From positions 1-63,424 of IMG/VR virus record IMGVR_UViG_3300028025_001987: a DNA stretch of 63,424 nucleotides, one strand, 5' to 3'. Each line of letters begins with the position of its first letter. Within the stretch, counting starts at the first letter, position 1. The stretch is from a virus. Lineage: Duplodnaviria > Caudoviricetes. Shown in pieces: positions 19,022 through 63,424 of the stretch. Below the pieces are notes generated by a model. The model had not been told where the DNA came from and ran no database searches. It saw only the letters and a program-made list of their open reading frames with translations. The position numbers were made by a program, and so were the translations under genes.

Positions 19022-19308
19022 TGAGAGACACTAAAGAAATAAAACTACGTATTATTGAAGCGGGGTACAAGGCGGTTAACCACCTTGTAAAAGTAGCTGA
19101 GGAGGATATTATTAATACCGAGTCAGATACAGACGTGTCAGCAGATAAGATGAAAAACGCAGCAGCGGCTAAGAAATTAGCCATCTTTGATGCATTTGAG
19201 ATACTAAGTAGGATAGAAGCGGAGAAAGAAAATTTGGATTCCGCAGACAGAGGAATAAGTAAAACAGATACAAAACAAGGATTTGCAGAAAGAAGGTCAA
19301 AGCAATAG
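19021..19308 (+). CDS. putative terminase small subunit
   Basis: Helical 95-aa ORF overlapping the terL start. Confidence 0.5.
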   Translation: MRDTKEIKLRIIEAGYKAVNHLVKVAEEDIINTESDTDVSADKMKNAAAAKKLAIFDAFEILSRIEAEKENLDSADRGISKTDTKQGFAERRSKQ

Positions 19309-26552: not shown

Positions 26553-26586
26553 GGGAGGGTGTCTTTAAAGACACTCTCCTTTTTTT
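26553..26586 (+). terminator. intrinsic terminator built on the 16-bp palindrome
   Basis: GGGAGG-GTGTCTTTAAAGACAC-TCTCCT followed by a T run. Confidence 0.8.
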
Positions 26587-41500: not shown

Positions 41501-44500
41501 CAAGACGCATTTATATTAGAAACTAATTCTGACCTTGAAGATGATGTTATAAATAAGGGCAGAGAAATGCCTCTTACAGAATTTGATGAAAATAATTTAA
41601 TGAATTATCCGCAAATTATTTATACATTTGCTGAACCAATAACTGACGAGCAAGTAGCAGACCTATCTGTAGCGTTAGAAAGTGAAGGTATTGATGCATT
41701 TAATATCAATAATAATGAACTTCAGGTATCAGTAATTAAATTTCTTTCACAAGACGAACAAAACAATTTAACCAATGATGAACAATATCAAGAACGCACA
41801 AGAGACTTCGACTCAAAAACAATCGCAATCGCAAAAGCCACGTCTGACGTACTCGGAAGCGATGGCAAGGGTGCAAGCAGCATTCGCATCAAAAAATCTT
41901 CTTACCAAGGAGCAACCAATGAAGGAAGTGCAGACCAAACAAGACAATTCAATAGGAGTGACGTTTTTAAAGCGTTCAAAGAGTCAACCACAAAAGTAGA
42001 AACACTTGCAGTTGAACTTGCTGACTTACGCCAAAAAGAAATAGACCTACAAAAAGAAGGAAAAAAATTATCTACTGAAGACCAAACTCGATTTAACGAG
42101 TTAGTTAAAAAAGTACAGCCTGTAGTACAGCGTACATTTGAAGCAAATAAAAAACTTTATGAAGATGCTAAGACTGAGGTAGAAGGTATCGCACAAGATG
42201 CCATCTCTCAAGTTGACGCATCCATATCTCCATTCCCAATTAAACGTGCCGAGCGTGCATCTGTTAAAGCTATCAGATGGTATAATGCATTCACCGAAAA
42301 ACTTGGTGATGGTTCACGTGTAAATATCGTAGTAGATACTGACGCTAATGCTGATAAAGTATTTAAAATTATTGACGAGAAGTATCCGGGGGATACAGAA
42401 GTAAGAAGAATCACGGAGACTACAGAATTGGGTTACCCAAAAAGACTTATTGAAATTCGTACATCTAATGGTACGCTTGCAGAAATTCAAGTGATTACCA
42501 ATGAAGCCTATTTGGCTAAGGATGGCATCAAAGGATTTACCGGAGATGAAAAGCAAAAAGCTACAGCTAAACAAAAGTTAGATGAAGTACGTGCTCGTCT
42601 TGGATGGAATATACCTGATGGACTTGGTCATTATTTCTACGAGATTCAAAGAGATACCAATGTAGATGATACTTTAAGAGATGAGGCTGCAAGATTAAGC
42701 GACCTATATTATGATGCATTTACTAATCCAAAGTCTACACTTACTGAGTCTTTTATGAATGATGTAAATACATTTAAAAATAATGTAGATGCTGCTGATA
42801 AATCACAATGGGATGTAGGAAACAATGGTAAGGCTCCACAATCTTTAATAGATTATAAACCTGTTCAGGCTGAAGCTGCACTTATGATAGAAGAAGAGCA
42901 GTTTATTCCTATGAAAGCATCTGAGGTTAAGAATGATGCGTTTACCAAAGACAATGCAATAGACTATATTGAAGATGAAAAAGATACTGATAGCGGAAGA
43001 ACTGTAACATATATCTCATCACTTACCGTTGAAGCACGTAATATAGATGGTGAACCTATTGGAACAATAACAAAACTTACCGATGAAGATAAAATATTCT
43101 CATTTACTGCAACAGATATTGATGGTAATGAGATTAATTTTGATGGATTTGAGACATTAGGAGAAGTAAAACAAGCACTTGCTGACAAGAACAATAAGAT
43201 TCAGAAGAAAGAATTTGATAAAGAGCAAAAGAAAAGGGCTAAAGAAAAAGCTAAAGTTGAGGCTAAAAAAGCTAAAGCTAAAGCAAAAGCTAAGCCTACA
43301 GTAGAAGAGCAAGTAACGGGTGCATTAGATGACTTACTTGCATTAGACCCTAACGATAAGACTACATTAAAGAAAATCTCAAATAGCCTTGACCAAGTGA
43401 TTAAGGATATTGATAAGTTTGAGAAAGAAAATCTTGGTGTAAATATAGCATTGCCTGTAATGAAGACCATCCTTAAAGCAATCAAGGCATTGGTTGACGC
43501 AGGTGTTGTATTACAAGATGCAATTAAAAGAGTTGCTAAAGACAACAATGTAAATAGCCGTGATGTAATTGATGGTATCAATGCTATTAGTCAAATTGCT
43601 CCTATTCAATCGCAGTATGATGCATTAATGGCAAAGGCTGATGATTTAATTGCACGTCAAAAATTAAGAAATATAGCTGATGCTAAAATAGTATCTAACT
43701 TAGATACGTTTATTAGAAATTCAGATATTTACAAAGAGAGTAATGATGCACAGAAGAAAATAATGGAGCGTGAGGCTAGACTTAAAATGGGAGTTGGTGC
43801 TAAGCGTGCGGTGTCAATTGGACGTGTGCTTGGTGCATTAAAAGATATTACCAATATATCGAGAGAAGAAAAGATGCTTGTCATCAAGCAAATTAGAGAC
43901 TTATCAAGAGATGCAGCTAAGGAATTGGCTAAGGATATTAGAGAGATGGCATCAAAAGGAAAGATTACATCAATCCAAGCAGCTAATATTGTATCAAGAT
44001 TTGGCAAGGTAAATATGCTTAATGAGATTTCAGTGTCAAACTTTGTTGACTATATGGCTAAGGTATTTGCAAACGCAGAGTATGCTGATAAGATTGATGT
44101 GGCTAAGAGTAAGTTGAAGATGGCTAAGAAAAACATTGTTACCAAGATTGGTATTGCTGATGGGTTGGTTGGAAAATTAAATCAATTATTTTCTATGAAT
44201 CCAACACTTATACCTAATGAATATCTTGGTCGTTACTTAGAATTAGTTGATATGTTTGGTGCAAGACAAGCAGTGCTTACACTTGACGAGAAGTCTGCAG
44301 TGACTAAAGATGTTCAAGCAATTCTTGATGAGATTGACAACGAGCAGTCAAAAGCTGACGAGTTAGCTGATAGATTTAATGCTTCTGAGAATAAAGTATT
44401 TAAAGATGACGAATTAGATTACGCAGCATCAATTAAAAAAATGCTTGACGGGAAAGAGATTGACGAGAAGGAAGCAGAGACTATGCGTAAATATAAAGAG

Positions 44501-49027: not shown

Positions 49028-50479
49028 TCATAAATAAAAATCTTGTTTAAAATGATTCACCGTGTAGTCTTTCTTCTTTGTGACAGCCTTGTAGATGTCG
49101 TGTTCAATACCACCCTTGGCAAAAATCCAATACACTTGATTCTCAAGCCTCTCCTTTGTAGTCATTCGGTCTTTGCTCTGCCAATAACTCGTAGCACTGA
49201 AGTCAATGTTGTAGTAAACCAAATACTCAGCGTGTCTTAAACTGATTCCTTCTCGTCCACTTACAATCTGCAATGCTATATTCTTATTGGTGTCTTCAAA
49301 GACACTTAACTCGGAGGTTAAGTCGTCACCAAATATTTGTTTGAGTGCGTTGTACTCTTCTTTAAACTTATAGAAGATTCCAATCTTGCATCCTTCAAAC
49401 TGCTCTTTGATAAACTCAGCCTTGCTCAAATCAAGTATCATACTATTCCCACTCTCAAACTTAATCGTCCCGCTGCACAACTGATGCACCTTCATCATCA
49501 ACTTCACAGGAGTGTCCCCCAAAATTATTTCTTCTTTTCCTTCTATCACTAATTCTTTCTTTAATTTTTTTATCATCGCATAAGTTGATGGCTTCATCTC
49601 TACCTCCAATATTTCTTCTTTAGTCTCAGACATAAAACCTGCCTCCTGCTGTGTGTAGTTGATAGTATATGGTTCCATCTCTTTGAGTATGGTGTCAAGT
49701 CCGCCACTATAATCATTAACAAATAGTCCGTTAATCTTACGCTGTTTTACTTTAACATACTTATCGCAGAACCTATAAAAGTTTTTAAATTCTCTGAACG
49801 GGTTGTTAGGTATCGCATATACTTGATGGTACATTTGTGAGTATGACTCAGGTGTTGGTGTACCACTAAGTAATATCACCATTGGTCTGCATTTTTTAAT
49901 TACCTCTGATACCAATTCTGCCCTCCCGCTCGGTTTTGGAAACGCCCCCATCCCGTGTGCTTCATCACAAACAATCAAGTCCCACTTCTTTTCATTCATT
50001 ACAGTGTGTAGGCTTTCATAGTTAATTACTTGCATATAATACGAAGGGCTAAGCATTGAGTAGTCCTCTGATATGGTGCTCAGTGCTTTCTTCTTGGTAA
50101 TAAATAGCACATTTCTTGCAAGCACACGCACAGCTATTCCAAGACTTGTCAATGTCTTTCCGGTACGAACCTCCATTGCTAAATACAGGAAGCCATACTT
50201 AGAAAGTATTTGCTGACCTTTCTCAATTATGTCAATCTGATAATCTCTGTAATTAAATCCTTGTTTGTCCTCCATCTCGTATAAGTTTTTATAATGCTCG
50301 CAACTGCTGATAATCTTGTCTATGATTTCTTGCTCTGTGTTATACTTAAGAACTTCTCGTATCTCAACTGCCTTGCCCCTGCCCGACTTTGTAGTCTTGG
50401 TTTGTAATACAACTTTCTTAAGCGTTTCGCAATAGTCCCACATCGCCTTGTTATTATATCCTGAGGTACGTTCAATCAT
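49028..50479 (-). CDS. SF2 (SNF2-like) DNA helicase
   Basis: RDYQ, MEVRTGKT, INYE, DEAH, SGTP, GREGISL, Q..DR. Confidence 0.9.
   Translation of the reverse strand: MIERTSGYNNKAMWDYCETLKKVVLQTKTTKSGRGKAVEIREVLKYNTEQEIIDKIISSCEHYKNLYEMEDKQGFNYRDYQIDIIEKGQQILSKYGFLYLAMEVRTGKTLTSLGIAVRVLARNVLFITKKKALSTISEDYSMLSPSYYMQVINYESLHTVMNEKKWDLIVCDEAHGMGAFPKPSGRAELVSEVIKKCRPMVILLSGTPTPESYSQMYHQVYAIPNNPFREFKNFYRFCDKYVKVKQRKINGLFVNDYSGGLDTILKEMEPYTINYTQQEAGFMSETKEEILEVEMKPSTYAMIKKLKKELVIEGKEEIILGDTPVKLMMKVHQLCSGTIKFESGNSMILDLSKAEFIKEQFEGCKIGIFYKFKEEYNALKQIFGDDLTSELSVFEDTNKNIALQIVSGREGISLRHAEYLVYYNIDFSATSYWQSKDRMTTKERLENQVYWIFAKGGIEHDIYKAVTKKKDYTVNHFKQDFYL
49290..49305. repeat. 16-bp palindrome copy (inside helicase)
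   Basis: GTGTCTTCAAAGACAC. Confidence 0.9.
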
Positions 50480-53244: not shown

Positions 53245-53405
53245 CTTATGTCGGTTTTATGTCGTTTTAAACTATCTAACTATCTGATTACTAATACTAA
53301 TGTCGATTATGTCGATTTTAAGTTCAAATTATAATCAAAGAAAATAAAAAGAATATAAAAACACATATAGAGAATATAGGGAAAACACATCGACATTTTC
53401 GTCAC
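53245..53405. repeat. ATGTCG iteron-like cluster B (candidate replication origin)
   Basis: ATGTCG at 53248, 53259, 53300, 53309; CGACAT at 53391; A-rich tract; adjacent to the primase-helicase gene. Confidence 0.6.
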
Positions 53406-53416
53406 GCATTAGAGGT

Positions 53417-53443
53417 AAAAAAAGGGGAAGTTTTCACTCCCCC
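53417..53443 (-). terminator. intrinsic terminator after ssb
   Basis: Minus strand GGGGAG-TGAAAA-CTTCCCC followed by T7. Confidence 0.7.
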
Positions 53444-53470
53444 GATTCTTTTTCTAAATGGGTGTTAATT

Positions 53471-53785
53471 CTAAAATGGAAGTTCGCCATCTTCATCTTC
53501 TGCAACCTCAGGTTCAGGTGCCTTTTGCTTAGGCGTAGCCTGTTTCTCTGATTGTGGCTTCATACCACTTTGTGCAGTCGGCTCATAGGTATCCAACTCA
53601 ATGTAATAATTGCCACTACGTGCAGTCTTTACATTAAGGTTAATCCATCCGCCCTTCTCGTGCTGTCTGATGAATGCTACTCCATCGTCTGCCTTGATTG
53701 ATAATCGCCCAACTACAAAGTCAGGTGCTTTTTCGTTCCTCTTGAATGAGAATCCGTCTGCAAAGATTTTTTCTTCGTTTGCCAT
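53471..53785 (-). CDS. single-stranded DNA-binding protein-like
   Basis: Compact beta domain, flexible linker, acidic tail EDEDGELPF. Confidence 0.7.
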   Translation of the reverse strand: MANEEKIFADGFSFKRNEKAPDFVVGRLSIKADDGVAFIRQHEKGGWINLNVKTARSGNYYIELDTYEPTAQSGMKPQSEKQATPKQKAPEPEVAEDEDGELPF

Positions 53786-53861
53786 TTTGTTCTATTTTTT
53801 TTGTTGCCTCAGTCTATTTGTACCAATCAAAGACCTCTGAGGCTAAGCCTATAATTAGTTG

Positions 53862-53947
53862 AGGTCGGGGCAGGAATTGAACCTGCAGTAACCAATTAAC
53901 GGAATCAAGCCACTAACGTAGGTGCCACAATTTTCCGTCACCCGACC
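53862..53947 (-). tRNA. degenerate tRNA-like RNA (loop CUUGAUU; UGA if read canonically)
   Basis: Acceptor GGTCGGG/CCCGACC, T arm GCAGG-TTCAATT-CCTGC, enlarged D loop, G-U-rich anticodon stem, U at position 37. Confidence 0.55.
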
Positions 53948-54026
53948 ATTTGCTTGTCTTTCCAAGCTGTCTGAATGAGGGTATTTTGTACGTAATTCAG
54001 GAACCTCTCATTATCTACCTTAGTTG

Positions 54027-54119
54027 TCGTCAGAGTGGGAATCGAACCCACACCATCTCTTACGAGTGCTCTAATTCCTCTAAGACTCCATTTAATTAGG
54101 AGCATTAAGCTATCTGACT
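54027..54119 (-). ncRNA. tRNA-like RNA lacking an anticodon loop
   Basis: GTCAGA/TCTGAC acceptor, TAGCTTAA start, T arm GTGGG-TTCGATT-CCCAC; anticodon arm replaced by CTC-GTAA-GAG; expanded D region. Confidence 0.6.
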
Positions 54120-54123
54120 GCCT

Positions 54124-54139
54124 GTGTCTTTGAAGACAC
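54124..54139. repeat. 16-bp palindrome copy immediately 5' of the tRNA-like RNA
   Basis: GTGTCTTTGAAGACAC. Confidence 0.9.
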
Positions 54140-54159
54140 TTGCTTCGGGGGATGCAATA

Positions 54160-54906
54160 TTATAATAAATATTCGTCAATGTAGTAGTTCACAATATCAT
54201 CTGATGGGTAAGCACTAAAATATTTATCATATATCTGAATTGCTTTGCCAACTTTGATTTCGCCACCTTTTACAAAGTCTTCTGTTGGTCTAAAAATACC
54301 AAGTACTCCGGTGCCTTTGTCAATAACGTAGAACACCAATGGCTTACCAAACAACTCCTGATAAATGTAGCACTGAGAATCGTAATTGTACTGCTTTGCT
54401 GTGTACTTAAACTTATGAATGTCACTCGTAGTCTTAAGGTCAATCACTGCATTGTCAGTAACAATATCAGCCTTCCCTTTCCACATCCTTCCTTGAATCG
54501 TTCCAACTGCCGGAGTCTCATACTCATTACCTGCTTTGTAAATCTCATCATAGAACGCAATGTTCCCATTGATAATACTTACTAAGTTTTGAATCTCGTC
54601 CTGCTCCTTCTTCAACATACAAAAAGGTAGGTTGTTTTCTTCGCAGAATAACTTATACTCTTTGGTAGTACGTGTACTCACATCTACTGCCGGCATACCC
54701 TTCGCTTTCTCAGGCTCCAAGATTAACTGATGAAAGTATCTGCCATCCATAAATGCTTTATTGTCTTCACGTGTCTTACCGAAGTCTTGAGGATTGCTAA
54801 GCAATATGCCTATGTCTGAATTAGATAAATAGTTCTTGCCATACCCATTGTAATACTCGTTGTCATCTCTGAGCAACGTTATAATTTCTGATACTTGATT
54901 TTCCAT
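54160..54906 (-). CDS. RecE/exonuclease VIII-like PD-(D/E)xK nuclease (DUF3799-like)
   Basis: LSNSD, G..FH..ILEP, KGKAD, IDLKTT, Y..Q...Y. Confidence 0.85.
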   Translation of the reverse strand: MENQVSEIITLLRDDNEYYNGYGKNYLSNSDIGILLSNPQDFGKTREDNKAFMDGRYFHQLILEPEKAKGMPAVDVSTRTTKEYKLFCEENNLPFCMLKKEQDEIQNLVSIINGNIAFYDEIYKAGNEYETPAVGTIQGRMWKGKADIVTDNAVIDLKTTSDIHKFKYTAKQYNYDSQCYIYQELFGKPLVFYVIDKGTGVLGIFRPTEDFVKGGEIKVGKAIQIYDKYFSAYPSDDIVNYYIDEYLL

Positions 54907-55553
54907 TACTCTGCGTTTAAAATGTTAGCGATTTCTTTCTTTAATGCCGGACTGATTTTATACTTGCGTGTAAGCTGTGCACCAATCTTCTCAATACCTA
55001 AAGACTTGTTAGCCGTTACGTATTTCACAACTGCGTTCCAATTGTCAGTACCTTTTTTCAAGTCTACCAATCCATCACCTACTGCAGGTGCTGTCTTTTT
55101 AGGAGCCTCAACTTTTGTAGCTGTAGTCTCTCCCTCAGGTAAATCTTCTCCTGCATAAATATAAATCCCCAACCCAAACATCGCTAAGTTCTTAACCAAG
55201 CAACGCATAATGGTTTTGTTAATGTCGAACGTAGTCGCTGACTCAACCTTCTTGTCGCCATAGCGTGAACTATAGCCGTACTCAGTCTTCTTCATTGATT
55301 TATTCGCCCCATCCATCACCGGCAACCACATCTCAAGCGTCTCGCCTTCGATAGTTACGGTAGTGTGGCACATAAATCCAAGTGCATCGTCATAAGTCGT
55401 TTCACCGATTTTGTACGTGGCATCAGGACACTCAGTCTTTGTCTTTGACCAAGCCCACGCCCAAGATAAATAAGTTAGATTGCTTTTCTTTTCAACGTGG
55501 TCGTTCACATTGATGGCGGATAGCCTTTCAAAAACCGTTGGTTTCTTTTCCAT
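54906..55553 (-). CDS. Sak/Rad52-like single-strand annealing protein (DUF1071)
   Basis: VEKK.NLTYLSWAWAW, LPVMD..NK, DINK.IMRCLVK..A.FGLGIYIYAGEDLP. Confidence 0.9.
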   Translation of the reverse strand: MEKKPTVFERLSAINVNDHVEKKSNLTYLSWAWAWSKTKTECPDATYKIGETTYDDALGFMCHTTVTIEGETLEMWLPVMDGANKSMKKTEYGYSSRYGDKKVESATTFDINKTIMRCLVKNLAMFGLGIYIYAGEDLPEGETTATKVEAPKKTAPAVGDGLVDLKKGTDNWNAVVKYVTANKSLGIEKIGAQLTRKYKISPALKKEIANILNAE

Positions 55554-55585
55554 TTGATTTGATTTGATTGATTGATTTGATTTGA

Positions 55586-55816
55586 TTAAGAAAGTTGATT
55601 ATTCCACGCTTCTTGCATTTCGTGTGGAGCATCAAAATACTTCTGTAATTCAGCAAGTGCTTCCTCTGTACTTGAAAACGGTATTGTCCTACATCCTACA
55701 CGGATTACGCATCCTCTTGACATAAACTGAATGTTGATTTCCCAACGACTTAAAGCCTCTTGCTTTGATGGTTTCCACTCTTGTGGCATAGGTTCTTCTC
55801 TAATTACATTTTCCAT
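55586..55816 (-). CDS. hypothetical protein
   Basis: 76-aa ORF with AATCA-repeat leader. Confidence 0.6.
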   Translation of the reverse strand: MENVIREEPMPQEWKPSKQEALSRWEINIQFMSRGCVIRVGCRTIPFSSTEEALAELQKYFDAPHEMQEAWNNQLS

Positions 55817-55846
55817 TTGATTTGATTTGATTGATTACTGATTTGA

Positions 55847-56149
55847 TTAGATAAACACCGCTCTCTCTACATCCTTGACAATAGACACGTAGTCCTTGTC
55901 TTCTGCAATCTTCTGCTCAACCGCAGTGATGCCGTGAATGATTGAGGAGTGCTTAATGTCGTAGCCTGCTTCGTTCATATACTTTTGGATATAGGTAACT
56001 TGCATAGGTCTCTTTGAGCATAGGTAATACACGAGATGCCTCGCATCCACAAACTCCCTCTTCTTTGACTTTGAGAATATATCTTCCTTATTAATATTGA
56101 ATAAGTCGGCAACCCTCTCCACATACTGATTAAAAACATCGTGCTTCAT
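55847..56149 (-). CDS. DnaA C-terminal-like HTH DNA-binding protein
   Basis: VA..F.I..EDI.SKS..R..V.AR....Y......HSSIIHG. Confidence 0.75.
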   Translation of the reverse strand: MKHDVFNQYVERVADLFNINKEDIFSKSKKREFVDARHLVYYLCSKRPMQVTYIQKYMNEAGYDIKHSSIIHGITAVEQKIAEDKDYVSIVKDVERAVFI

Positions 56150-56171
56150 AAAATAATTTAATTTAAGACAA

Positions 56172-56179
56172 CAAATATA
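56172..56179 (-). promoter_or_regulatory. -7 promoter element
   Basis: TATATTTG on the minus strand. Confidence 0.6.
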
Positions 56180-56205
56180 CGAGAATATGTTCACAACTCG
56201 TTCAT

Positions 56206-56427
56206 TTATTTGTTAATTTTTTCCCACAATTTTATTTCTGTTTCATCAAGGGAACGGCTCTTAAACTCATCATCTAAATAAAACTCACCTGATTCTAAAA
56301 CTTGTATGTACATTCCCCCCACGTAGTGTACAACGTCAGTACAGTCCTTACGTAGCTTCTCATTTGGATTCTTGTCAAGGAAAGATTCCTTGCACATAAA
56401 ACGCCCGCTGTTGATAAATTTTTCCAT
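56206..56427 (-). CDS. hypothetical protein
   Basis: 73-aa ORF. Confidence 0.55.
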   Translation of the reverse strand: MEKFINSGRFMCKESFLDKNPNEKLRKDCTDVVHYVGGMYIQVLESGEFYLDDEFKSRSLDETEIKLWEKINK

Positions 56428-56481
56428 TAGATTAAAGTTTAAGGGAGCACAAGGCTCCCGTTGATTTGATTAAATTTCGTA

Positions 56482-56489
56482 CAAATATA
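56482..56489 (-). promoter_or_regulatory. -7 promoter element followed by a leader hairpin
   Basis: TATATTTG, then GGGAGC-CTTGT-GCTCCC (56443-56459). Confidence 0.55.
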
Positions 56490-56496
56490 GTTCAAT

Positions 56497-56694
56497 TTAT
56501 TTATAAAACAATAAATCGCTATACTTCACATACACAAAACCATCGTGAATGATTTTGTCTGCATTATCCCACGACTCCTTCGTGATGATATGACCCTCAG
56601 GAAAATTTGGATTAGCCTCCAACTCCTGAATTAATAAGGACGCTTGCTCCTGCAACATCCTTAGTCTGTCTATTAGTGTTTCTTGCTTATCCAT
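56497..56694 (-). CDS. hypothetical protein
   Basis: 65-aa ORF. Confidence 0.5.
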   Translation of the reverse strand: MDKQETLIDRLRMLQEQASLLIQELEANPNFPEGHIITKESWDNADKIIHDGFVYVKYSDLLFYK

Positions 56695-57082
56695 AAACCA
56701 CCTCCCCCATAGTTAGGTATTGGAACACAACGTCTGCTGAGTCTCCATCGCCCTCTTCTTTTAAGTGCCTATCTAATGCCCACTTGTTTGGACTCTCTGC
56801 AAGCAACTGCAGGCGTGCCTGCATAGTGCCACGTGTGATGACGCCTATTACCTCATCTTCATCTTCTGCATCATTTATAGCTACCTTCACATCGTGGTCT
56901 AAGATAGCTTTTAGGATTGCTGTACTAAGGTATGGGTCTTCCTCTTTAGGAACCGCTTTGCGGATTGCTTTGATTGACTCCTCAGGTAGAAAGTACCAAT
57001 AGTTACTGCCTCCTTCTAATGCTGTTACGAAAATATCTTCTAAGACTTCTCGCTTTACTCCTTGAATGATTTTGATTTCCAT
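56687..57082 (-). CDS. conserved phage hypothetical protein
   Basis: TALEGGSNYW...D.D.ADV..Q....GEVVYG. Confidence 0.7.
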   Translation of the reverse strand: MEIKIIQGVKREVLEDIFVTALEGGSNYWYFLPEESIKAIRKAVPKEEDPYLSTAILKAILDHDVKVAINDAEDEDEVIGVITRGTMQARLQLLAESPNKWALDRHLKEEGDGDSADVVFQYLTMGEVVYG

Positions 57083-57083
57083 T

Positions 57084-57320
57084 TTATTTGATTTGATTTG
57101 ATTGTAAATATTGAAACACTTCATCGTACACTGCATCGAACTCTTCTTGAATTTTCTCAGTGTACCTCAACTCTCCATTGCCATCATCATCTTCGTTAGT
57201 GTCGTACAAGTTAACACCCTCCCCCTCGTACTTAATTTCGATAAACAATGCGGTCATCTCTGATGCCAATTCGTTCAGGTAGAACGTGGCTTTTGGCGTG
57301 CCATTGATTACATTTTCCAT
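57084..57320 (-). CDS. acidic hypothetical protein
   Basis: 78-aa ORF. Confidence 0.55.
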   Translation of the reverse strand: MENVINGTPKATFYLNELASEMTALFIEIKYEGEGVNLYDTNEDDDGNGELRYTEKIQEEFDAVYDEVFQYLQSNQIK

Positions 57321-57324
57321 TTGA

Positions 57325-57639
57325 TTAGTCTTTTAATTGTTTGATTTCTAAATCCTCACACGTGTAGTCGATGGCTAAAAAGATTTGCTCCATCGTAGCA
57401 TCATTGGTCATTGCCCTGCTAAGCACATCGTAAGCCTGCTCTTTACTGCAATCGTAATTTTGCATAACGTCATCAACGCACCATAGGTTTTCTACAAAGT
57501 ACCCTTTGCTTCTGAGCAACGCACGTGCTGTCGCCCCATCATTCAATTTTTCTTTTAATCGCTTTACCTCATCCCGAAGAAAGTCGATTTCCAAGTTGGC
57601 ACTTGCCACTTGACTCATCTCGTAGTGATTTTTTGACAT
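57325..57639 (-). CDS. hypothetical protein
   Basis: 104-aa ORF; W.VDDV...S.EQA..VL. Confidence 0.6.
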   Translation of the reverse strand: MSKNHYEMSQVASANLEIDFLRDEVKRLKEKLNDGATARALLRSKGYFVENLWCVDDVMQNYDCSKEQAYDVLSRAMTNDATMEQIFLAIDYTCEDLEIKQLKD

Positions 57640-57773
57640 ACTGATTTGATTTGATTATAAATTAATTTGATAAAAATTATTACACATAGTAACGAATAGA
57701 TAGTGATAGCCAAAGGCACCGACACTAAGAAGAAGTAAACAAGCCCGAAGGATATTTTAAAAAACTTTTTCAT
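57615..57773 (-). CDS. small membrane protein
   Basis: MKKFFKISFGLVYFFLVSVPLAITIYSLLCVIIF. Confidence 0.45.
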   Translation of the reverse strand: MKKFFKISFGLVYFFLVSVPLAITIYSLLCVIIFIKLIYNQIKSVCQKITTR

Positions 57774-57783
57774 AGCATTTGGT

Positions 57784-58008
57784 TTAAAATGAAATAACAT
57801 CGAAGTCCTGATACATCTCAACTGTTGCCTTAGGGTACGCATTTTGCAACTCAAAGACATAGTCGTCATTGTCATAAAGAATATCATTCTCCCTTTCATA
57901 GGCTACCATTGGCTGAATGATTTTTTTGATTTGTTCCTCATCTAAGGTTGTCATTAGGTAGAAGTCCTCTTCCGCCCAAGCACTCGTGTTGATTTTAAAA
58001 ACTTGCAT
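57784..58008 (-). CDS. acidic hypothetical protein
   Basis: 74-aa ORF directly 3' of hammerhead C. Confidence 0.55.
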   Translation of the reverse strand: MQVFKINTSAWAEEDFYLMTTLDEEQIKKIIQPMVAYERENDILYDNDDYVFELQNAYPKATVEMYQDFDVISF

Positions 58009-58045
58009 TGTCGTGGTTTTAATGTTTGTTAAATTTAATAAATTT

Positions 58046-58097
58046 TCCGTTTCATCTTTTCAGAATCATCAGTCGGGACAACTCATCCCGATACGGA
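58046..58097 (-). ncRNA. type III hammerhead ribozyme C
   Basis: UCCG-UA / UCGGGA-UGAGUUG-UCCCGA / CUGAUGA / UUCU-GAAA-AGAU / GAAA-CGGA; predicted cut after GUA (58092/58091). Confidence 0.85.
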
Positions 58098-58102
58098 GGG
58101 CA

Positions 58103-58118
58103 GTGTCTTTGAAGACAC
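58103..58118. repeat. 16-bp palindrome copy 5' of hammerhead C
   Basis: GTGTCTTTGAAGACAC. Confidence 0.9.
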
Positions 58119-58135
58119 CACCCATCGCCACAAGC

Positions 58136-59254
58136 CTAAGGTTGGAATCGTAATACCTCAGACTCAGTGAACCACTCATCGCAACCACTACAATGATAAT
58201 TTGCGAACGCATCGTGCTCTAAATCGTGAAAGCAATTCACACATATAGGTTTCTCATTCTCTATGTCGAACTCGCAATCGTCACACTCATCGTCCAATAT
58301 GTCTAACAAGCACACACTCTTCGGCTCATCGTAGCCCATCTGAGAAAATATGCTTTGATATTTTTTACTCTCCCTCTCATCCTCTTTCTCCCAAAAACTT
58401 AACGGCTTATAATTTTGCGTGTAAGTTTTGTGATGCTCTTTTCCGTCTGCTGTCTCACGAATGTTGAAGTATATCCAACACTTAAGCACTCCGTTCTTAG
58501 TAGTCACATCAACTTGCTTCCTGCGATACCAATCAGGATGACCCTCCAATCTATCTAACTGAGCCAACACACCTGAACTGACTTTGAATATGTCCACCTC
58601 CACGTGATGACCTTGTCCACTCTTCTCAATCAAGTAAGGTAGTCCACTGATGATAAGCGGATACTTGCTCTTCGTGTTCCCTTTGGATACAAATTTTGAA
58701 GCACTGAGGTAGTGATGGTAATTGTTGTACCCCTTCTTTAACGTGCCGTAGACAGCAATTAAATTGTCCTCAAGGACGTTGTCCTTGCTGTACCAAACGC
58801 CATCCCTCTGACTCCACAACTCTTTGTTGTAGATTTGGTATGTCCTGCTGTGCGTGTTAACCGATACAAACCTGCACTCATACTGCTCCAACTCCTTCTT
58901 CCACTTGTGGCGTGGTATCTCACCCAAGTTCTCTGCTAATACTTTTGAGTCACTCTTCTTGACATTGCCAAGTGCTCTGATAGTTCCGTTCATCATAAGC
59001 CACTCTTGTTTGTTGCTCCCGCATCTGAATGGATGCGTGTTGTCTTTGTTGATAGCACCAATCGTGGCGTATCTAAAGTGAGCAATGAATGGTCTCGCTG
59101 TGTCGAGTATCTTATACTCTGCTGATTTGTGATACGTTACCTCGAACGTATCCAACCATACAACTCCCAATCCGTGGGGATTAATTCGTGCTGAGGTCTT
59201 TGCAACCTCCTGAGGGACTTTCTTCCCTTTCTGCTTGATAATGATTACACACAT
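58136..59254 (-). CDS. class II glutamine amidotransferase fused to gamma-glutamylcyclotransferase and a Zn ribbon
   Basis: N-terminal Cys (MCVII), NPHGLG, HFRYAT.G....NTHPF, MNG; AVYGTLKKG...LDRLEGHP.WYRR; CVNC/CSGC. Confidence 0.9.
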   Translation of the reverse strand: MCVIIIKQKGKKVPQEVAKTSARINPHGLGVVWLDTFEVTYHKSAEYKILDTARPFIAHFRYATIGAINKDNTHPFRCGSNKQEWLMMNGTIRALGNVKKSDSKVLAENLGEIPRHKWKKELEQYECRFVSVNTHSRTYQIYNKELWSQRDGVWYSKDNVLEDNLIAVYGTLKKGYNNYHHYLSASKFVSKGNTKSKYPLIISGLPYLIEKSGQGHHVEVDIFKVSSGVLAQLDRLEGHPDWYRRKQVDVTTKNGVLKCWIYFNIRETADGKEHHKTYTQNYKPLSFWEKEDERESKKYQSIFSQMGYDEPKSVCLLDILDDECDDCEFDIENEKPICVNCFHDLEHDAFANYHCSGCDEWFTESEVLRFQP

Positions 59255-59276
59255 AAGCTAAATTGGTTTGTGGGCA

Positions 59277-59292
59277 GTGTCTTTGAAGACAC
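59277..59292. repeat. 16-bp palindrome copy in the leader of the GATase gene
   Basis: GTGTCTTTGAAGACAC between a promoter-like TATCTTCG (59321-59328) and the ATG. Confidence 0.9.
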
Positions 59293-59360
59293 AGAACCCG
59301 ATGATTGAACTAATATTGAACGAAGATACGACATAATTTAGACATAACCAAATTTATTTT

Positions 59361-59522
59361 TCAATAAAGTTTTTTGGCTGTCATCATTTTCCTATCTATT
59401 GTCAACCCTTCTGCTGAAAATTTGTAAAACGCTTTGTCGATAGCCTCCCACTTTGTGTGGGCGACTACCAAGCAAAGACTTTTTTTCAAATAAAAAACTC
59501 TGAAACAATACTGATTCTCCAT
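59361..59522 (-). CDS. small hypothetical protein (not in ORF track)
   Basis: MENQYCFRVFY...AKKLY, 53 aa, AATCA leader. Confidence 0.5.
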   Translation of the reverse strand: MENQYCFRVFYLKKSLCLVVAHTKWEAIDKAFYKFSAEGLTIDRKMMTAKKLY

Positions 59523-59569
59523 ATCTGATTTGATTTAAGTTCTCTCATCCCAAAGGGATGCGAGTATTT

Positions 59570-59860
59570 TTAATAATCATCCTCCAACCTCTCCCCTGCA
59601 TACGATGGGTCGAAGTATCTATCCTTACGATACGGGTACTTGTTGCTGTCATAACACTTGTCGCACCAATCCCCCGTACCATACCCGTAGGCGTCACATC
59701 TGCTTTCGACTATCTCCTTCGTGTCTTTGGTCTCGCATCCTCTACACCTCGGTAGATTCTCGTAGCACCTTTCACATAGGTCATCCTCAAACCACATATC
59801 GTGGCGTCCTTGTGGGCGTGAACAACTTGAGCACTCCCACACATCATTTGCTTTTGTCAT
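59570..59860 (-). CDS. Cys-rich Zn-finger protein
   Basis: Four CxxC pairs. Confidence 0.6.
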   Translation of the reverse strand: MTKANDVWECSSCSRPQGRHDMWFEDDLCERCYENLPRCRGCETKDTKEIVESRCDAYGYGTGDWCDKCYDSNKYPYRKDRYFDPSYAGERLEDDY

Positions 59861-60057
59861 TTTAATTTGCGTTTAGTTACGTGATAGATTCTGATTCCGT
59901 CCTCGATTTTCATATCAATGGGATACACTGATACGAGCACATCAAGGTAGTGCTTGTACTCCTCCAACTTATCCGCAGGTAAGTAAAGAAGTCTGTCGAT
60001 AACGTCCTGAATAATCTCATTACGTTGGGTCTCAATAGTCATTTGTTCTTTAGTCAT
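59857..60057 (-). CDS. hypothetical protein
   Basis: 66-aa ORF. Confidence 0.5.
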   Translation of the reverse strand: MTKEQMTIETQRNEIIQDVIDRLLYLPADKLEEYKHYLDVLVSVYPIDMKIEDGIRIYHVTKRKLK

Positions 60058-60068
60058 TTGAATTTGAT

Positions 60069-60365
60069 TTAAACTGTGATTGATAAAACATAATTAAAAA
60101 ACTCGTATAGAGGCATACTTGAATACTTAACCGCATCCGCATACGTATCAAAGAAGTACTCTTCATTATCCCTTTGAATTGCAAACTTAATCGCATACCC
60201 TCCCTGATAATTGGTAAAGTGGATAATCTCAATCCAATTATCTAAGACAATGTGCCCTTGCGTCTTTGTCGGGTCATAGATTGCGTACTTGATTCTTGCC
60301 GTTGGACATTGCTCGTAGTACACCACGAATAATTCCTCCATCATTTGTTGATAATCTTTAGTCAT
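60069..60365 (-). CDS. hypothetical protein
   Basis: Start moved to MTKDYQQ behind AATCAAATCAAG, just 3' of hammerhead B. Confidence 0.55.
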   Translation of the reverse strand: MTKDYQQMMEELFVVYYEQCPTARIKYAIYDPTKTQGHIVLDNWIEIIHFTNYQGGYAIKFAIQRDNEEYFFDTYADAVKYSSMPLYEFFNYVLSITV

Positions 60366-60388
60366 CTTGATTTGATTTAAGTGGTTTC

Positions 60389-60436
60389 CGTTTCGTCCTT
60401 TGGGACTCATCAGCCCGAGCAACACACTCAGGGACG
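60389..60436 (-). ncRNA. type III hammerhead ribozyme B
   Basis: CG-UC / CCUGAG-UGUGUUG-CUCGGG / CUGAUGA / GUCC-CAAA-GGAC / GAAA-CG; predicted cut after GUC (60433/60432). Confidence 0.88.
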
Positions 60437-60438
60437 CA

Positions 60439-60454
60439 GTGTCTTTGAAGACAC
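60439..60454. repeat. 16-bp palindrome copy 5' of hammerhead B
   Basis: GTGTCTTTGAAGACAC. Confidence 0.9.
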
Positions 60455-60463
60455 CGCCACTTG

Positions 60464-61039
60464 TTAAGCAAGGCAATAAGCCTCAGATAAAATTCTCACC
60501 GCCTTATCTACATCCTCAGGACGGACAACTACAAAATAGTTAGGTCGATACACGCCATCAGTATCTGACTCCGTCTTTCTTGTTGGTATCCCTTCCCCGT
60601 TTAACATTGCCTCCACCGGCTCGATGCTTGCCTCTTTCAATGAATGAAACACCGCATACACCGGCTTACTGTAACCCTCCGGCATCCACTCACTCGTCAC
60701 ATCAAACTCAGGCTCCTGCACATTCGCCCCATCCACATATTCAATCCCATCATTCCACGCATCCACGTTGACCCATCCACCCTCCCACGCCCTGCCATTG
60801 AGGAACCAATTGCCCCTGACTTGTTGGATATGCACACCGCTCAATCCATTGAGCCTCTCCTTTGTGGTTTTACTCTTCCATCCTGCATTGCTTATCCATA
60901 AGCCATCCCTCCTGATTTCGGCTATCTTGTTGTCGAATAGCCATAAACTCTCACCATCCGTTCTGCTGTTGTCGATTCGTAATGAACGGCTATTTTGAAA
61001 AGCGTTCACGATATCTTGTGTTATCTGTCTCATTGTCAA
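60464..61039 (-). CDS. conserved phage early protein
   Basis: L..N.IA......I...GW.S.TTKERLN pattern. Confidence 0.65.
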   Translation of the reverse strand: MTMRQITQDIVNAFQNSRSLRIDNSRTDGESLWLFDNKIAEIRRDGLWISNAGWKSKTTKERLNGLSGVHIQQVRGNWFLNGRAWEGGWVNVDAWNDGIEYVDGANVQEPEFDVTSEWMPEGYSKPVYAVFHSLKEASIEPVEAMLNGEGIPTRKTESDTDGVYRPNYFVVVRPEDVDKAVRILSEAYCLA

Positions 61040-61052
61040 TTGATTTAAATGG

Positions 61053-61247
61053 TTACTTAATTATTTTCTTTAACTCAGTCTCAAGCATTTGCATAGAGAC
61101 AGCGACTAAGAAAATTGATGACATCCATACAAAAAGGGTAACACCTGCTGACGTGTTAAACTTGTAAGGCAAATAAACTCCGATAATTGCTCCTAATAAG
61201 CCACTACCAAATAAGATTCCGATTTTTGTGATTACTGATTTTTTCAT
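61053..61247 (-). CDS. small two-TM membrane protein
   Basis: Two hydrophobic segments. Confidence 0.55.
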   Translation of the reverse strand: MKKSVITKIGILFGSGLLGAIIGVYLPYKFNTSAGVTLFVWMSSIFLVAVSMQMLETELKKIIK

Positions 61248-61252
61248 TTTGA

Positions 61253-61381
61253 TTAGATTTGATTGATTAATAAATTTTGTTCTGCTTGCTCCATAAAGTA
61301 GTCGAACTCAAAAATAAGACGCCACTCGTGTAAGGCTTGCTCGTTGGGAAATGTCATCCCGTTGTGGTTTACTGATTCCAT
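61253..61381 (-). CDS. small hypothetical protein (not in ORF track)
   Basis: MESVNHNGMTFPNEQALHEW..., 42 aa, AATCAAATG start just 3' of hammerhead A. Confidence 0.45.
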   Translation of the reverse strand: MESVNHNGMTFPNEQALHEWRLIFEFDYFMEQAEQNLLINQI

Positions 61382-61403
61382 TTGATTAAATTTTTTGTGG
61401 TTT

Positions 61404-61454
61404 GCTGTTTCGTTCTTTAGAACTCATCAGGAGGGATACTCATCCCCCGACAGC
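61404..61454 (-). ncRNA. type III hammerhead ribozyme A
   Basis: GCUG-UC / GGGGGA-UGAGUA-UCCCUC / CUGAUGA / GUUC-UAAA-GAAC / GAAA-CAGC; predicted cut after GUC (61449/61448). Confidence 0.92.
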
Positions 61455-61458
61455 GGAA

Positions 61459-61474
61459 GTGTCTTTGAAGACAC
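61459..61474. repeat. 16-bp palindrome copy 5' of hammerhead A
   Basis: GTGTCTTTGAAGACAC. Confidence 0.9.
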
Positions 61475-61486
61475 TCCCTCTCGTGA

Positions 61487-62365
61487 TTAATAGTTTCGCA
61501 CGTATTGTGCAATATCTTGATGCACCTCACCTTTCAGAATGTACGCCCTGAATAGCTTTGATAACCTCAACACCTCGTTGGCGTCATCCTCATTGCCATT
61601 ATACATTGAAACAATGATAGGCTTGATTTTCTTAAGCAATCCTTCGTGTGAGCCATTAGGCGTTGCGATGCTGTAGTTAACAATCTCATACATTAGCTCA
61701 TATCTCCTCATCATTTGCTTAACTGACTGAAAGCGAGACGGAACCCTAAACTCAAGGCATCCACCCTTTACAAGGGCTAATTGGTACTTGTGGTGCCAAT
61801 TGGTAGACTCGGTTGAATTTTGCATCCTGCTATTGTAACTGCAATAACTATTTGCTATTCGCTTTTTGAATAGAGCAAGGACGATACCGCAATTTTTACG
61901 AATGGCATCCCTCAAGGCATCACCACTCATCCCCTCACAAGCTATGGTGATATGACCGCCACACCTTCTATCCGAAGGGCTAAACCTATCATCGATAATC
62001 TTTTCAGCCTTGTGCATCATATCATAAACTTTTGTCCTCCACCCACCTGCAGGTAACAAAGGGAGCACGTGGGTAACGGCTTCGTATCCGCACGACCCAT
62101 CACGCTCAAACCCACAAAATAATTCATATTCACGCACCGCATTACGGCTCAATTGGTTTTTCTCAACCTCAAACCCAATTGTAAATTTAGAGGCATACTC
62201 ACCGCTTTCAAACTTAATCGAACTACGCTGTTGTGCCGGCTTAAGCCCTGCAATATCGACAGCGTGTTTGCTTTTGTTTAGAAACAATGGCGAAGGCTTA
62301 GAGTGGTAACTTGCCACTTGACCCCTTCGACTTTCTCCTGTTGTTGAATAAATGATTCCGTTCAT
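61487..62365 (-). CDS. putative amidoligase (COOH-NH2 ligase, amidoligase_2-like)
   Basis: IGFEVE, .DGS..YE.VT, CGGHI, KY..L....LEFR. Confidence 0.75.
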   Translation of the reverse strand: MNGIIYSTTGESRRGQVASYHSKPSPLFLNKSKHAVDIAGLKPAQQRSSIKFESGEYASKFTIGFEVEKNQLSRNAVREYELFCGFERDGSCGYEAVTHVLPLLPAGGWRTKVYDMMHKAEKIIDDRFSPSDRRCGGHITIACEGMSGDALRDAIRKNCGIVLALFKKRIANSYCSYNSRMQNSTESTNWHHKYQLALVKGGCLEFRVPSRFQSVKQMMRRYELMYEIVNYSIATPNGSHEGLLKKIKPIIVSMYNGNEDDANEVLRLSKLFRAYILKGEVHQDIAQYVRNY

Positions 62366-62389
62366 TGTAGTAAATTTTAGGTGGTTAAA

Positions 62390-63037
62390 TTATCTATTTT
62401 GTAAACTGAAATTCAATACAGCGATTGCCTCCCTGATTTGCTCATCGCTGTTTGTGGTTTTTACTAAGCCGTTTGCATCGATACGCACTGAAACATTGCC
62501 GGCTTCGTTTTTGTACGTGAAAGTTAAAATGGTTTCAACACGTGTTTCAACTTGTGGCTCACTTTCAGCGTCTCCGCTTTCAGCGTCTCCGCCTTCTCCA
62601 CCTGCATTGGTGCCCGACTCCACCTGCTTTGCAAATTTTAATAAACCCTCAAGGCTTCTATTCGGCTCCTCACCTTGAGCCTCTACCTCATTGCATTTTG
62701 CATTGAATGACTCGATAACCTCGGGCTGTAGGCGTCCTGCTTTCACTACTTTGTAGAAAAAACTTTTTTGCCATCCAAAAACTTTTTGTCCAATCTCCTC
62801 ATTGCTCCAACTGATACCCTCATCGGTGCAAACTCTTTGCCCCTCCGGTGATTGAAACCAATCTACAGCCGTAGTAACTAACTTACTCAAGGCAAGCGTT
62901 TGCTCGAATTTCTTTTTCTTAGCATTCGTGATAGTACGTTGCACGCTCCTAATTTCGCTCAAGTTCAAGCCCTGCTTGACTTGTGGTAGGCTTAGGAAAG
63001 CCGTTTCGATTGATAGTAATTGACTCATTGTGTTCAT
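62390..63037 (-). CDS. hypothetical early protein
   Basis: 215-aa ORF, first gene after the 63068 promoter. Confidence 0.65.
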   Translation of the reverse strand: MNTMSQLLSIETAFLSLPQVKQGLNLSEIRSVQRTITNAKKKKFEQTLALSKLVTTAVDWFQSPEGQRVCTDEGISWSNEEIGQKVFGWQKSFFYKVVKAGRLQPEVIESFNAKCNEVEAQGEEPNRSLEGLLKFAKQVESGTNAGGEGGDAESGDAESEPQVETRVETILTFTYKNEAGNVSVRIDANGLVKTTNSDEQIREAIAVLNFSLQNR

Positions 63038-63067
63038 TTTTTGGTTATTAATTGATTAATTCTTTCA

Positions 63068-63075
63068 CAAATATA
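63068..63075 (-). promoter_or_regulatory. -7 promoter element for the early operon
   Basis: TATATTTG on the minus strand. Confidence 0.6.
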
Positions 63076-63230
63076 GTTTATTACTCCATTCCACCAAATA
63101 AATATTTGCTTTTTTTTGGCTCATTACGTGAAACCCTTATGAATAAAGGGCTTGAGGCTTCGATATTCTTGTACTATGTTTGAACTAAGGATGAACAAAG
63201 GAGGGGCAAAGCCTTCTTTCTAGGGGCTTT

Positions 63231-63246
63231 GTGTCTTTAAAGACAC
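63231..63246. repeat. 16-bp perfect palindrome copy
   Basis: GTGTCTTTAAAGACAC. Confidence 0.9.
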
Positions 63247-63298
63247 TAACAAAGGGGAACGGCAGGCAATGTCAGGCAATTGCAGGCAATGAGCGTAA

Positions 63299-63424
63299 AA
63301 CGTACTATCACGAATGCTAAGAAAAAGAAATTCGAGCAAACGCTTGCCTTGAGTAAGTTAGTTACTACGGCTGTAGATTGGTTTCAATCACCGGAGGGGC
63401 AAAGAGTTTGCACCGATGAGGGTA
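63299..63424. repeat. exact inverted copy of 62815-62940 at the contig end
   Basis: Reverse complement of an internal segment of the 62390-63037 gene. Confidence 0.9.

Follow-up and report, generated by a model that had tools for sequence, protein, structure and literature searches.

Type III hammerhead ribozymes behind abutting hairpins in intergenic spacers of a Flavobacteriia-lineage phage

Background and summary

This report describes three hammerhead ribozymes in the genome of a tailed virus (Duplodnaviria; Caudoviricetes), IMG/VR record IMGVR_UViG_3300028025_001987. The window that was analysed is the whole virus record, 63,424 bp, which is 100% complete by estimate. Reading the sequence from 57900 to 61600 gives three full type III hammerheads on the minus strand, each in an intergenic gap. 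They are called HH1, HH2 and HH3 here (Table 1). By sequence and structure these are real type III hammerheads, and they appear to be new members of that class, missed by the Rfam cutoff. The observation, made in an initial annotation of this DNA, is confirmed as correct and statistically solid.

Hammerhead cleavage yields a 2',3'-cyclic phosphate and a 5'-OH. Probably all three ribozymes are functional and lie between the genes of one polycistronic RNA, about 9.6 kb long, which comes from the replication/recombination arm of a podophage infecting Flavobacteriia; cleavage is predicted. Each is preceded by a hairpin next to its stem III. If cleavage takes place, a single step would give the upstream RNA a hairpin-capped 3' end with a cyclic phosphate, and the downstream RNA a ribozyme-capped 5'-OH end.

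The three ribozymes

All three carry the complete core: C3 U4 G5 A6 N7 G8 A9, then G12 A13 A14, the pair A15.1-U16.1, and an H at position 17, which is not G. Full-length alignments and a structural parse give three helices; loops cap stems I and II, and stem III is left open. The pairs beside the core (1.1-2.1, 10.1-11.1 and 15.1-16.1) are Watson-Crick in HH1 and HH2; HH3 has U.U at 10.1/11.1.

In HH1 the 5' strand of stem III runs from 61454 to 61450 and is followed by C17 at 61449, with predicted cleavage at 61449/61448. Then come a stem I with loop UGAGUA, the CUGAUGA motif, a stem II of 4 bp with loop UAAA, GAAA, and the 3' strand of stem III, ending at 61404. HH2 has its C17 at 60433 (predicted cleavage 60433/60432), and HH3 has A17 at 58092 (predicted cleavage 58092/58091). 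The 5' ends that had been predicted for these RNAs, 61448, 60432 and 58091, agree with the positions of N17. The minimum-energy fold of the native HH1 spacer is a hairpin plus a three-way junction, as predicted.

Chance is a poor explanation. The pattern of core followed by GAAAC occurs at three sites in the window against 0.17 expected, and none of 100 shuffles reaches that count. With permissive filters, which hammerhead matches need, the Rfam model RF00008 aligns over its full length (1-54/54) to all three. On 3.9 kb the E-values are 1.1e-7 for HH1, 3.6e-5 for HH3 and 4.7e-5 for HH2; on the whole window they are 1.9e-6, 5.9e-4 and 7.6e-4, and besides these only a tRNA-like element appears.

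The loops fit what is known of natural hammerheads. Loop 1 reads UGAGUA in HH1, UGUGUUG in HH2 and UGAGUUG in HH3; loop 2 reads UAAA, CAAA and GAAA. Dufour et al. (2009, PMC2632901) give the natural motif as UNmYN for loop 1, mostly a UN3YN hexaloop, and RNnA for loop 2, mostly GNRA or AAAA, with a pair formed by the U at the 5' end of loop 1 and the A at the 3' end of loop 2. The initial annotation had claimed exactly this U and this A, and both fit. The 5' purine of loop 2 is there in HH3 only, as HH1 and HH2 start this loop with a pyrimidine.

Conservation among relatives

Of 50 hairpin-carrying records, 17 have RF00008 matches; among those with a completeness of 90% or more the figure is 12 of 16. 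None of the 50 exceeds the cutoff, and matches are found in 0 of 14 control genomes. A structural parse of the relatives gives 37 distinct cassettes, of which 36 were aligned and one, cut by the edge of its locus, was dropped. Across these 36, CUGAUGA, GAAA and U16.1 are invariant.

The three helices covary. In the alignment 98.0% of 540 cells are paired, a percentage that is partly built in by a parser that demanded a perfect stem I and a stem III of at least 3 bp; the diversity of pair types is not built in. Twelve of the 15 pairs show changes on both sides, which amounts to 154 cells, and the covariation score of 0.758 exceeds that of shuffles (0.272, with none of 500 reaching the observed value) and of slid partners (0.148 at most). 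Because the core is invariant while the stems covary, the RNA fold itself is under purifying selection.

Our own covariance model, R1, was built from the aligned cassettes. It finds 36 places in 14 of 17 near-complete genomes, one to four per genome, on one strand and within a few kb. On the window it reports exactly the three known places. The initial annotation had said that the stems differ with pairing kept, and had proposed to look for a conserved core and for the same cassette in related phages; all of this was borne out.

A somewhat larger set holds 47 distinct family ribozymes with usable flanks, where any base was allowed at core position 7. N7 is U in 38, C in 8 and A in 1, and H17 is C in 25, A in 20 and U in 2. 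Loop 1, four nucleotides as parsed, is GAGU in 22 of the 47 and GUGU in 11; together with the closing U.G/A pair this makes the UN3YN hexaloop. Loop 2 is AAAA in 27 and GAAA in 8.

Five named phages were also searched, and only Flavobacterium phage elemoF 6-3D has an R1 match (41 bits, 17863-17923, minus strand). At its cleavage site this ribozyme reads GUA, and its core is CUGAAGA. It occupies the leader of a divergent operon's first gene, and no hairpin abuts it. Since elemoF and its host are in culture, direct tests are possible.

Some relatives carry more. At loci L130, L136, L196, L212, L236, L241 and L263 there is a second conserved hairpin, 'aaacc..gg..tt..aaacc', after the ribozyme and before the leader, and an RNA-library contig has the same insertion just 3' of HH1 (behind 61393-61400). 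By eye, L136, L137 and L132 also show intergenic motifs that look like type I, with an open stem I and a stem III closed by a GC-rich tetraloop hairpin. These are unconfirmed: Rfam at E <= 0.01 on six relative loci gives type III only and does not report the type I-like motifs of L136, L137 and L132.

The hairpin before stem III

In the window, every ribozyme is part of a fixed order: the upstream stop codon, 9-17 nt, a hairpin with a 16-nucleotide core (the 16-mer), the hammerhead, an A-rich leader, and AUG. From stop codon to hairpin core there are 12, 9 and 17 nt for HH1, HH2 and HH3, and from the core to stem III there are 4, 2 and 5 nt. In HH1 and HH3 those 4 and 5 nt form the 3' side of a stem extension of the hairpin, which makes the true gap zero. 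In HH2 the extension also takes the first base of stem III. The layout given in the initial annotation stands, except that its '2-5 nt' between hairpin and ribozyme is extended hairpin stem and not a spacer. An intrinsic-terminator test on the hairpins at 61459, 60439 and 58103 finds no T run on their 3' side; the ribozyme comes there instead.

The same is seen in the relatives. Of the 47 distinct ribozymes, 42 are preceded by a perfect hairpin (6 bp or more) whose end lies 0-3 nt ahead of stem III; 40 of these have a gap of zero, and 36 use the 16-mer. At random positions of the same loci this test succeeds 1495 times in 20000, with 546 at gap zero. Four of the five ribozymes that fail it visibly have imperfect hairpins.

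Because the first relatives were found via the hairpin, a second set was found by ribozyme core and stem II only, in 87 stretches. This yields 78 distinct ribozymes; outside these are four more without a perfect stem I according to the parser, and one cut by a locus edge. Stem III is 4-5 bp long in 58 of the 78. The hairpin is present in 55, compared to 7.5% of random positions; the gap is zero in 43, and only 18 use the 16-mer. Judging from these counts, what is conserved is that a hairpin clamps onto a short stem III; the 16-mer is the form that this hairpin takes in one clade.

The near-exclusive gap of zero speaks for a hairpin that at the least clamps the short stem III structurally, because protection of the 3' end alone needs no exact abutment. 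Such protection is plausible as well.

The 16-mer is not limited to ribozymes, a point that the initial annotation had missed. There are 10 sites in the window against 0.06 expected. Five minus-strand copies include four within the studied stretch; three of these adjoin a ribozyme, and the fourth does not (59277-59292). Further copies lie at 19492-19507 (plus strand), 49290-49305, 41108-41123, 26559-26574 and 63231-63246. Their contexts include the terminase frame, the helicase gene (antisense), the 2969-aa open reading frame (ORF), and the region upstream of the minus-strand arm. The copy at 26559 is the tip of a terminator with an extended stem and a T run, after the gene of a 472-aa virion protein. 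The terminase stop-to-stop frame that contains a 16-mer, 19259-21532, is 757 aa long, compared to a profile length of 758.

Relatives repeat these contexts, with the 16 bases unchanged and the flanks variable, and an extended stem with a T run is found in 22-25 contexts among them. The exact 16-mer is present in at least 120 viral stretches, many of them from contigs near 60 kb in length. Among copies of known sense strand, the centre reads CA in 55 cases, TG in 6 and TA in 7. Because the original scan was blind to strand, this bias points to a constraint on the transcript. The flanks pair in 88-97% at extension positions 1-4 in ribozyme contexts versus 39-47% elsewhere, and extension position 2 covaries clearly (0.97 versus 0.47 for shuffles, five pair types).

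Such conservation, far beyond what pairing needs, invites another explanation, which we hold to be improbable. The 16-mer hairpin would be the site of a specific phage or host protein, and the cassette a regulated switch acting through stem III, read-through or decay, with cleavage conditional. This would account for a sequence that stays invariant even within the terminase frame and antisense in the helicase gene, for the strand-biased loop, and for reuse with T runs, leaders and tRNA-like elements. It does not account for the core-found ribozymes in which unrelated hairpins take the same place. No candidate binding protein was identified, and the 16-mer is present in 0 of the 5 named relatives searched.

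Even further from what we expect is that the hairpin acts as DNA, as an operator or a replication or packaging site next to the ribozyme by coincidence, or that the ribozymes are decaying or selfish passengers; we give this very little credence. The 16-mer is a near-perfect palindrome with 7-bp arms, it occurs in coding regions on either strand, some relatives lack ribozymes, and one breakpoint in gene content versus the closest relative, G041, falls on the 3' edge of HH2. Yet the flanks covary as an RNA stem only in ribozyme and terminator contexts, the centre is biased relative to transcription, and unrelated hairpins replace the 16-mer at the same zero-gap position. The selection seen on the RNA fold does not suit passengers. 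Other synteny breakpoints lie away from cassettes. Two small minus-strand genes, 60069-60365 and 55586-55816, are absent from G041, and it is the first of these indels that starts at HH2. The idea that cassettes are recombination boundaries was dropped, as only one of about five synteny breaks versus G041 is at a cassette.

Leaders and start codons

The next AUGs are at 61381, 60365 and 58008, which is 16-38 nt after the ribozymes. The leaders are A-rich and hold no Shine-Dalgarno-like run. In the 47 family cassettes the first AUG follows GAAA by 16-55 nt, in most cases by 22-28. An AUG at 60408-60410, within the CUGAUGA core of HH2, is in frame with the downstream ORF, and ORF callers extend the gene into the ribozyme; the likely true start is 60365.

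This uniform spacing raises the thought that the main role is translational. In a host that does without Shine-Dalgarno sequences, a 5'-OH end at a short fixed distance before the AUG would allow or boost initiation, and segmentation of the transcript would be a by-product. We consider this unlikely as the main role, though it is compatible with cleavage of a polycistron. The A-rich leaders suit it, and so does elemoF, where a single ribozyme in the 5' leader of a first gene has no upstream cistron to detach. According to the portion of Lopez-Galiano et al. (2026, PMC13725137) that treats this, self-cleavage alone induces translation initiation in fungal and plant RNA viruses. That precedent is eukaryotic and cap-independent, however, and there is no evidence for bacterial ribosomes preferring 5'-OH ends. 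The conserved hairpin on the upstream side would be left unexplained, and tight spacing may just reflect compact phage genomes.

Proposed mechanism

The preferred reading, in which the ribozymes cut a polycistronic RNA, would work as follows. As the spacer is transcribed, a stable hairpin of 8-11 bp would form first. It would stack end-to-end on the short stem III (3-5 bp), which should aid folding, and would shield the 5' strand of stem III from the upstream coding sequence. The ribozyme would then cut after N17. The upstream RNA would end in the hairpin, 4-6 nt and a 2',3'-cyclic phosphate. The downstream RNA would start with a 5'-OH, the compact ribozyme body, an A-rich leader of about 12-34 nt (about 20 in most relatives) and the AUG. 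A short stem III would let the two products part. In this way the operon would be cut into segments, with stability and translation uncoupled. Cleavage in vivo, a single transcription unit, the consequences for stability and translation, and ends that resist exonucleases are all inferred.

All three ribozymes probably lie within one unit of about 9.6 kb, because a promoter motif and a terminator (Table 1) bracket the minus-strand arm. For the promoter we applied what we take to be the Bacteroidota consensus. The initial annotation spoke of an 'early operon'. What the sequence shows is a replication/recombination arm, and 'early' is deduced from its gene content.

Several observations weigh against this reading. 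Across the window the promoter pattern is not significant (5 sites versus 2.86 expected), so that it is only position that supports the site at 63098-63068, and there is a possible second promoter near 59300-59340. Three of the 17 near-complete relatives have the hairpin and no ribozyme, and therefore the ribozyme is dispensable for this phage type.

There is also the matter of the Rfam scores. The Rfam check that had been proposed for these ribozymes came out divided: full-length matches are there with permissive filters, but a scan at gathering thresholds returns no hammerhead and one tRNA-like match, since all three stay below 48.5 bits. The RF00008 alignments trace this to a loop 2 that is shorter, and a loop 1 that is longer, than in the seed consensus. 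The gathering cutoff is a threshold for inclusion in a database, not a biochemical feature.

The folds of HH2 and HH3 are less convincing than that of HH1. Stem III of HH2 is only 3 bp and is missing from the minimum-energy fold. HH3 has a U.U mismatch beside the core and an effective stem II of 3 bp, and this weak stem is likewise missing from the minimum-energy fold. Nearest-neighbour models disregard the core and tertiary contacts, so they only flag HH2 and HH3 as weaker candidates. Perreault et al. (2011, PMC3088659) turned down candidates mispaired at 10.1/11.1 unless their activity was measured, which counts against HH3.

In the family, U.U at this pair is found in 12 of the 47 distinct ribozymes, with differing stem I sequences, which suggests a tolerated variant. 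N17 moreover tracks the pair: U.U goes with A17 in 12 of 12, A.A with U17 in 2 of 2, and C17 is found only with G-C (25 of 25), while G-C also occurs with A17 (8). A link between N17 and 10.1/11.1 appears to be new; if true, it would indicate an undescribed contact or folding checkpoint in natural hammerheads. The U.U copies also differ in their downstream genes, though they may share descent.

Lastly, four metatranscriptome runs hold parts of the stretch, as contigs on 53300-63424. Such contigs resolve neither ends, strand nor transcription. Those with 0-17 differences cross HH2 and HH3, and a divergent one (125 differences) crosses HH1; they are uninformative on cleavage, yet they show no break. 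The spanning contigs are X1 record 4 (59981-60494), X2 record 12 (57555-58203) and X2 record 15 (61284-63304). Contigs that stop near ribozymes (X4 record 28, from 61403 onwards; X4 record 26, up to 59276) are equally uninformative. One contig joins 60413 to 61458 with 21 letters on one side; this is most likely a relative's ribozyme and is not counted as evidence.

The window and its other features

The phage is of lytic type. Its plus-strand genes (75-47586) include GroEL, large terminase, portal, virion proteins and two ORFs of about 2,900 aa. The minus-strand arm runs from 63037 to 47573 and encodes a Sak-like annealing protein, an exonuclease, a primase/helicase, a helicase, a GGACT-domain protein and many small ORFs. 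Terminase matches in GenBank comprise 87 phage records: Flavobacterium 68, Cellulophaga 15, Tenacibaculum 2, Maribacter 1 and uncultured 1. Because the terminase relatives infect these genera, the host is very likely a member of the Flavobacteriia. At the DNA level, comparison with GenBank phages gives only one record, with a 5% match.

The chaperonin at 925-2541 (plus strand) is of GroEL type (PHROG E 6e-135). One giant ORF, 38504-47413 (plus strand, 2969 aa), shows weak similarity to a Tas1-like chain (E 2e-4) and to GNAT domains. The other, 8116-16668 (plus strand, 2850 aa), ends in a C-terminal endosialidase-chaperone / tail-fibre domain. A virion RNA polymerase with hairpin promoters was considered and dropped as unsupported, which is not to say disproved: neither protein has a polymerase match in PHROGs, Pfam or PDB sequences.

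A 375-nt non-coding gap on the minus strand, 53786-54160, holds two tRNA-like elements whose acceptor and T arms are canonical and whose D and anticodon regions are aberrant. Element 1 carries a 31-nt insert, and a mini-hairpin replaces its anticodon arm, with 4 nt for a loop. ARAGORN calls no tRNA on the window, while it calls the orthologue in L060 a 93-nt tRNA-Val. In L060 the inserted 5-bp stem shows compensatory changes and has a 9-nt loop. A single tRNA-like element is seen in relatives and in RNA-library contigs (joints 53861-54029 and 53857-54023; G041).

Near position 4331 of L075 (minus strand, script coordinates) the 16-mer hairpin is followed by a minimal acceptor-plus-T-arm minihelix. 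Such a minihelix is the kind of minimal substrate that RNase P accepts. A general rule of hairpin followed by tRNA-like element was dropped, as there are 3 cases only.

Table 1 Positions of the ribozymes, hairpins and neighbouring features in the window.
Feature	Position	Strand	Evidence and remarks
HH1, type III hammerhead, GUC site	61404..61454	-	RF00008 44.4 bits; R1 75.3 bits; minimum-energy fold is the hammerhead junction
HH2, type III hammerhead, GUC site	60389..60436	-	RF00008 35.2 bits; R1 65.4 bits
HH3, type III hammerhead, GUA site	58046..58097	-	RF00008 35.6 bits; R1 70.9 bits
Hairpin 1, core 61459-61474 with 4-bp extension	61455..61478	-	10-bp stem, 4-nt loop, gap 0 to HH1 stem III; minimum-energy fold
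Hairpin 2, core 60439-60454 with 2-3 bp extension	60437..60457	-	Sequence read, 16-mer scan, structural parse
Hairpin 3, core 58103-58118 with 5-bp extension	58098..58123	-	Adjoins HH3 stem III; sequence read, 16-mer scan, parse, fold
16-mer hairpin without ribozyme, leader of GGACT-domain gene	59277..59292	-	Same context recurs in relatives
16-mer hairpin, 4 nt upstream of tRNA-like element	54124..54139	-	16-mer scan
tRNA-like element 1	54027..54119	-	RF00005 35.9 bits, cutoff 29
tRNA-like element 2, 7-bp acceptor stem and T arm	53863..53947	-	Weak tRNA-Sec match, 21.9 bits, E 0.055; fold z-score -2.6
Bacteroidota-type promoter-like site, TTTG-19 nt-TAnnTTTG	63068..63098	-	Exact pattern match, head of minus-strand arm
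Intrinsic terminator-like hairpin and T run	53424..53443	-	8 pairs, 5 G-C, then T7; likely end of transcription unit
42-codon ORF, no family assignment	61253..61381	-	AUG 26 nt past GAAA of HH1
Gene after HH2, 98 aa from AUG 60365	60069..60365	-	Absent in closest relative G041 (synteny break 60386-60072)

Comparison with known systems

That phage hammerheads cut polycistrons is not a new thought; it is the standard hypothesis, published in 2011. As described in the main text of Perreault et al. (PMC3088659), clustered prophage hammerheads flank genes and were proposed to cut long phage transcripts to gene-length mRNAs. Three tandem (clustered) arrangements cleaved in vitro, and the triple one of A. 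tumefaciens also in E. coli. Our case is like these clusters in that several hammerheads share a strand, fall within a few kb and lie between genes whose identity varies. It differs in that those clusters are of mixed types and come from Clostridium, Azorhizobium and Agrobacterium prophages, whereas the present ones have Rfam scores below the cutoff and belong to lytic-type podophages. An abutting hairpin at stem III is not mentioned in that main text, where 'terminator' has 0 matches and the matches for 'hairpin' are unrelated.

The HHphage ribozyme of haloviruses HF1 and HF2, covered in the same text (PMC3088659), likewise lies a few nt before a start codon in an early polycistronic transcript of replication genes, and a mapped 5' end is at most 3 nt from its cleavage site. 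In contrast to ours it belongs to an archaeal virus, has a variant core that needs high Mg2+, is present in single copy, and has no described hairpin. The type III hammerheads of viroids and satellites, as treated in the relevant parts of PMC2632901, share the topology, a loop 1 hexa- or heptaloop with 5' U and penultimate pyrimidine, and a loop 2 tetraloop ending in A. In viroids the rest of the circular RNA closes stem III, and the ribozyme serves to process replication intermediates; in our case stem III is open, short, buttressed by a hairpin and placed in mRNA.

What appears to be new is the zero-gap hairpin clamp, together with its occurrence outside this clade, the 16-mer in its multiple contexts, and the N17-10.1/11.1 link. 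No publication on the cassette or the 16-mer was found in a search of main texts, mostly of freely accessible papers, so that a prior description may exist. A wider claim can be made only tentatively, and we would sooner doubt it than accept it: that the clamped hammerhead is a modular 'mRNA punctuation cassette', widespread in aquatic phages and the natural counterpart of synthetic insulators; that the 16-mer caps three end-forming devices (U-tract termination, hammerhead cleavage, and RNase P at tRNA-like elements); and that N17 and 10.1/11.1 are coupled, A17 with U.U and U17 with A.A.

The Weinberg review (2019, PMC6765202) describes the purpose of genomic hammerheads in bacteria and phages as still open. 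Ribozyme specialists will find the present case unsurprising, but it is a very clean system for that question. The design is natural and regular, with a fixed hairpin, a zero gap, a short stem III, a fixed distance to the AUG and one to four copies per genome, and relatives that lack the cassette are natural controls. The role of the ribozyme in mRNA ends, stability and translation can thus be tested, as can the stacked hairpin as a general helper for hammerheads with an open stem III. The case also shows that the Rfam cutoff misses a whole phage subfamily.

In T7, early mRNA is cut by host RNase III at intergenic structures, which leaves hairpin-ended 3' termini, with 5'-phosphate and 3'-OH ends. 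The process proposed here is similar in that a polycistronic phage RNA would be cut at intergenic structures. Here the RNA itself would do the cutting, leaving 5'-OH and cyclic phosphate, and there is no kinship in sequence or structure.

RiboJ-type insulators are synthetic: a satellite hammerhead and a hairpin 3' of the ribozyme together standardise 5' untranslated regions. The likeness is that a self-cleaving hammerhead with a helper hairpin precedes the start codon and would uncouple a gene from its upstream context. Here the arrangement is natural, and the hairpin precedes the ribozyme and would stay on the upstream product. The cassette may supply compact insulator parts for Bacteroidota genetics.

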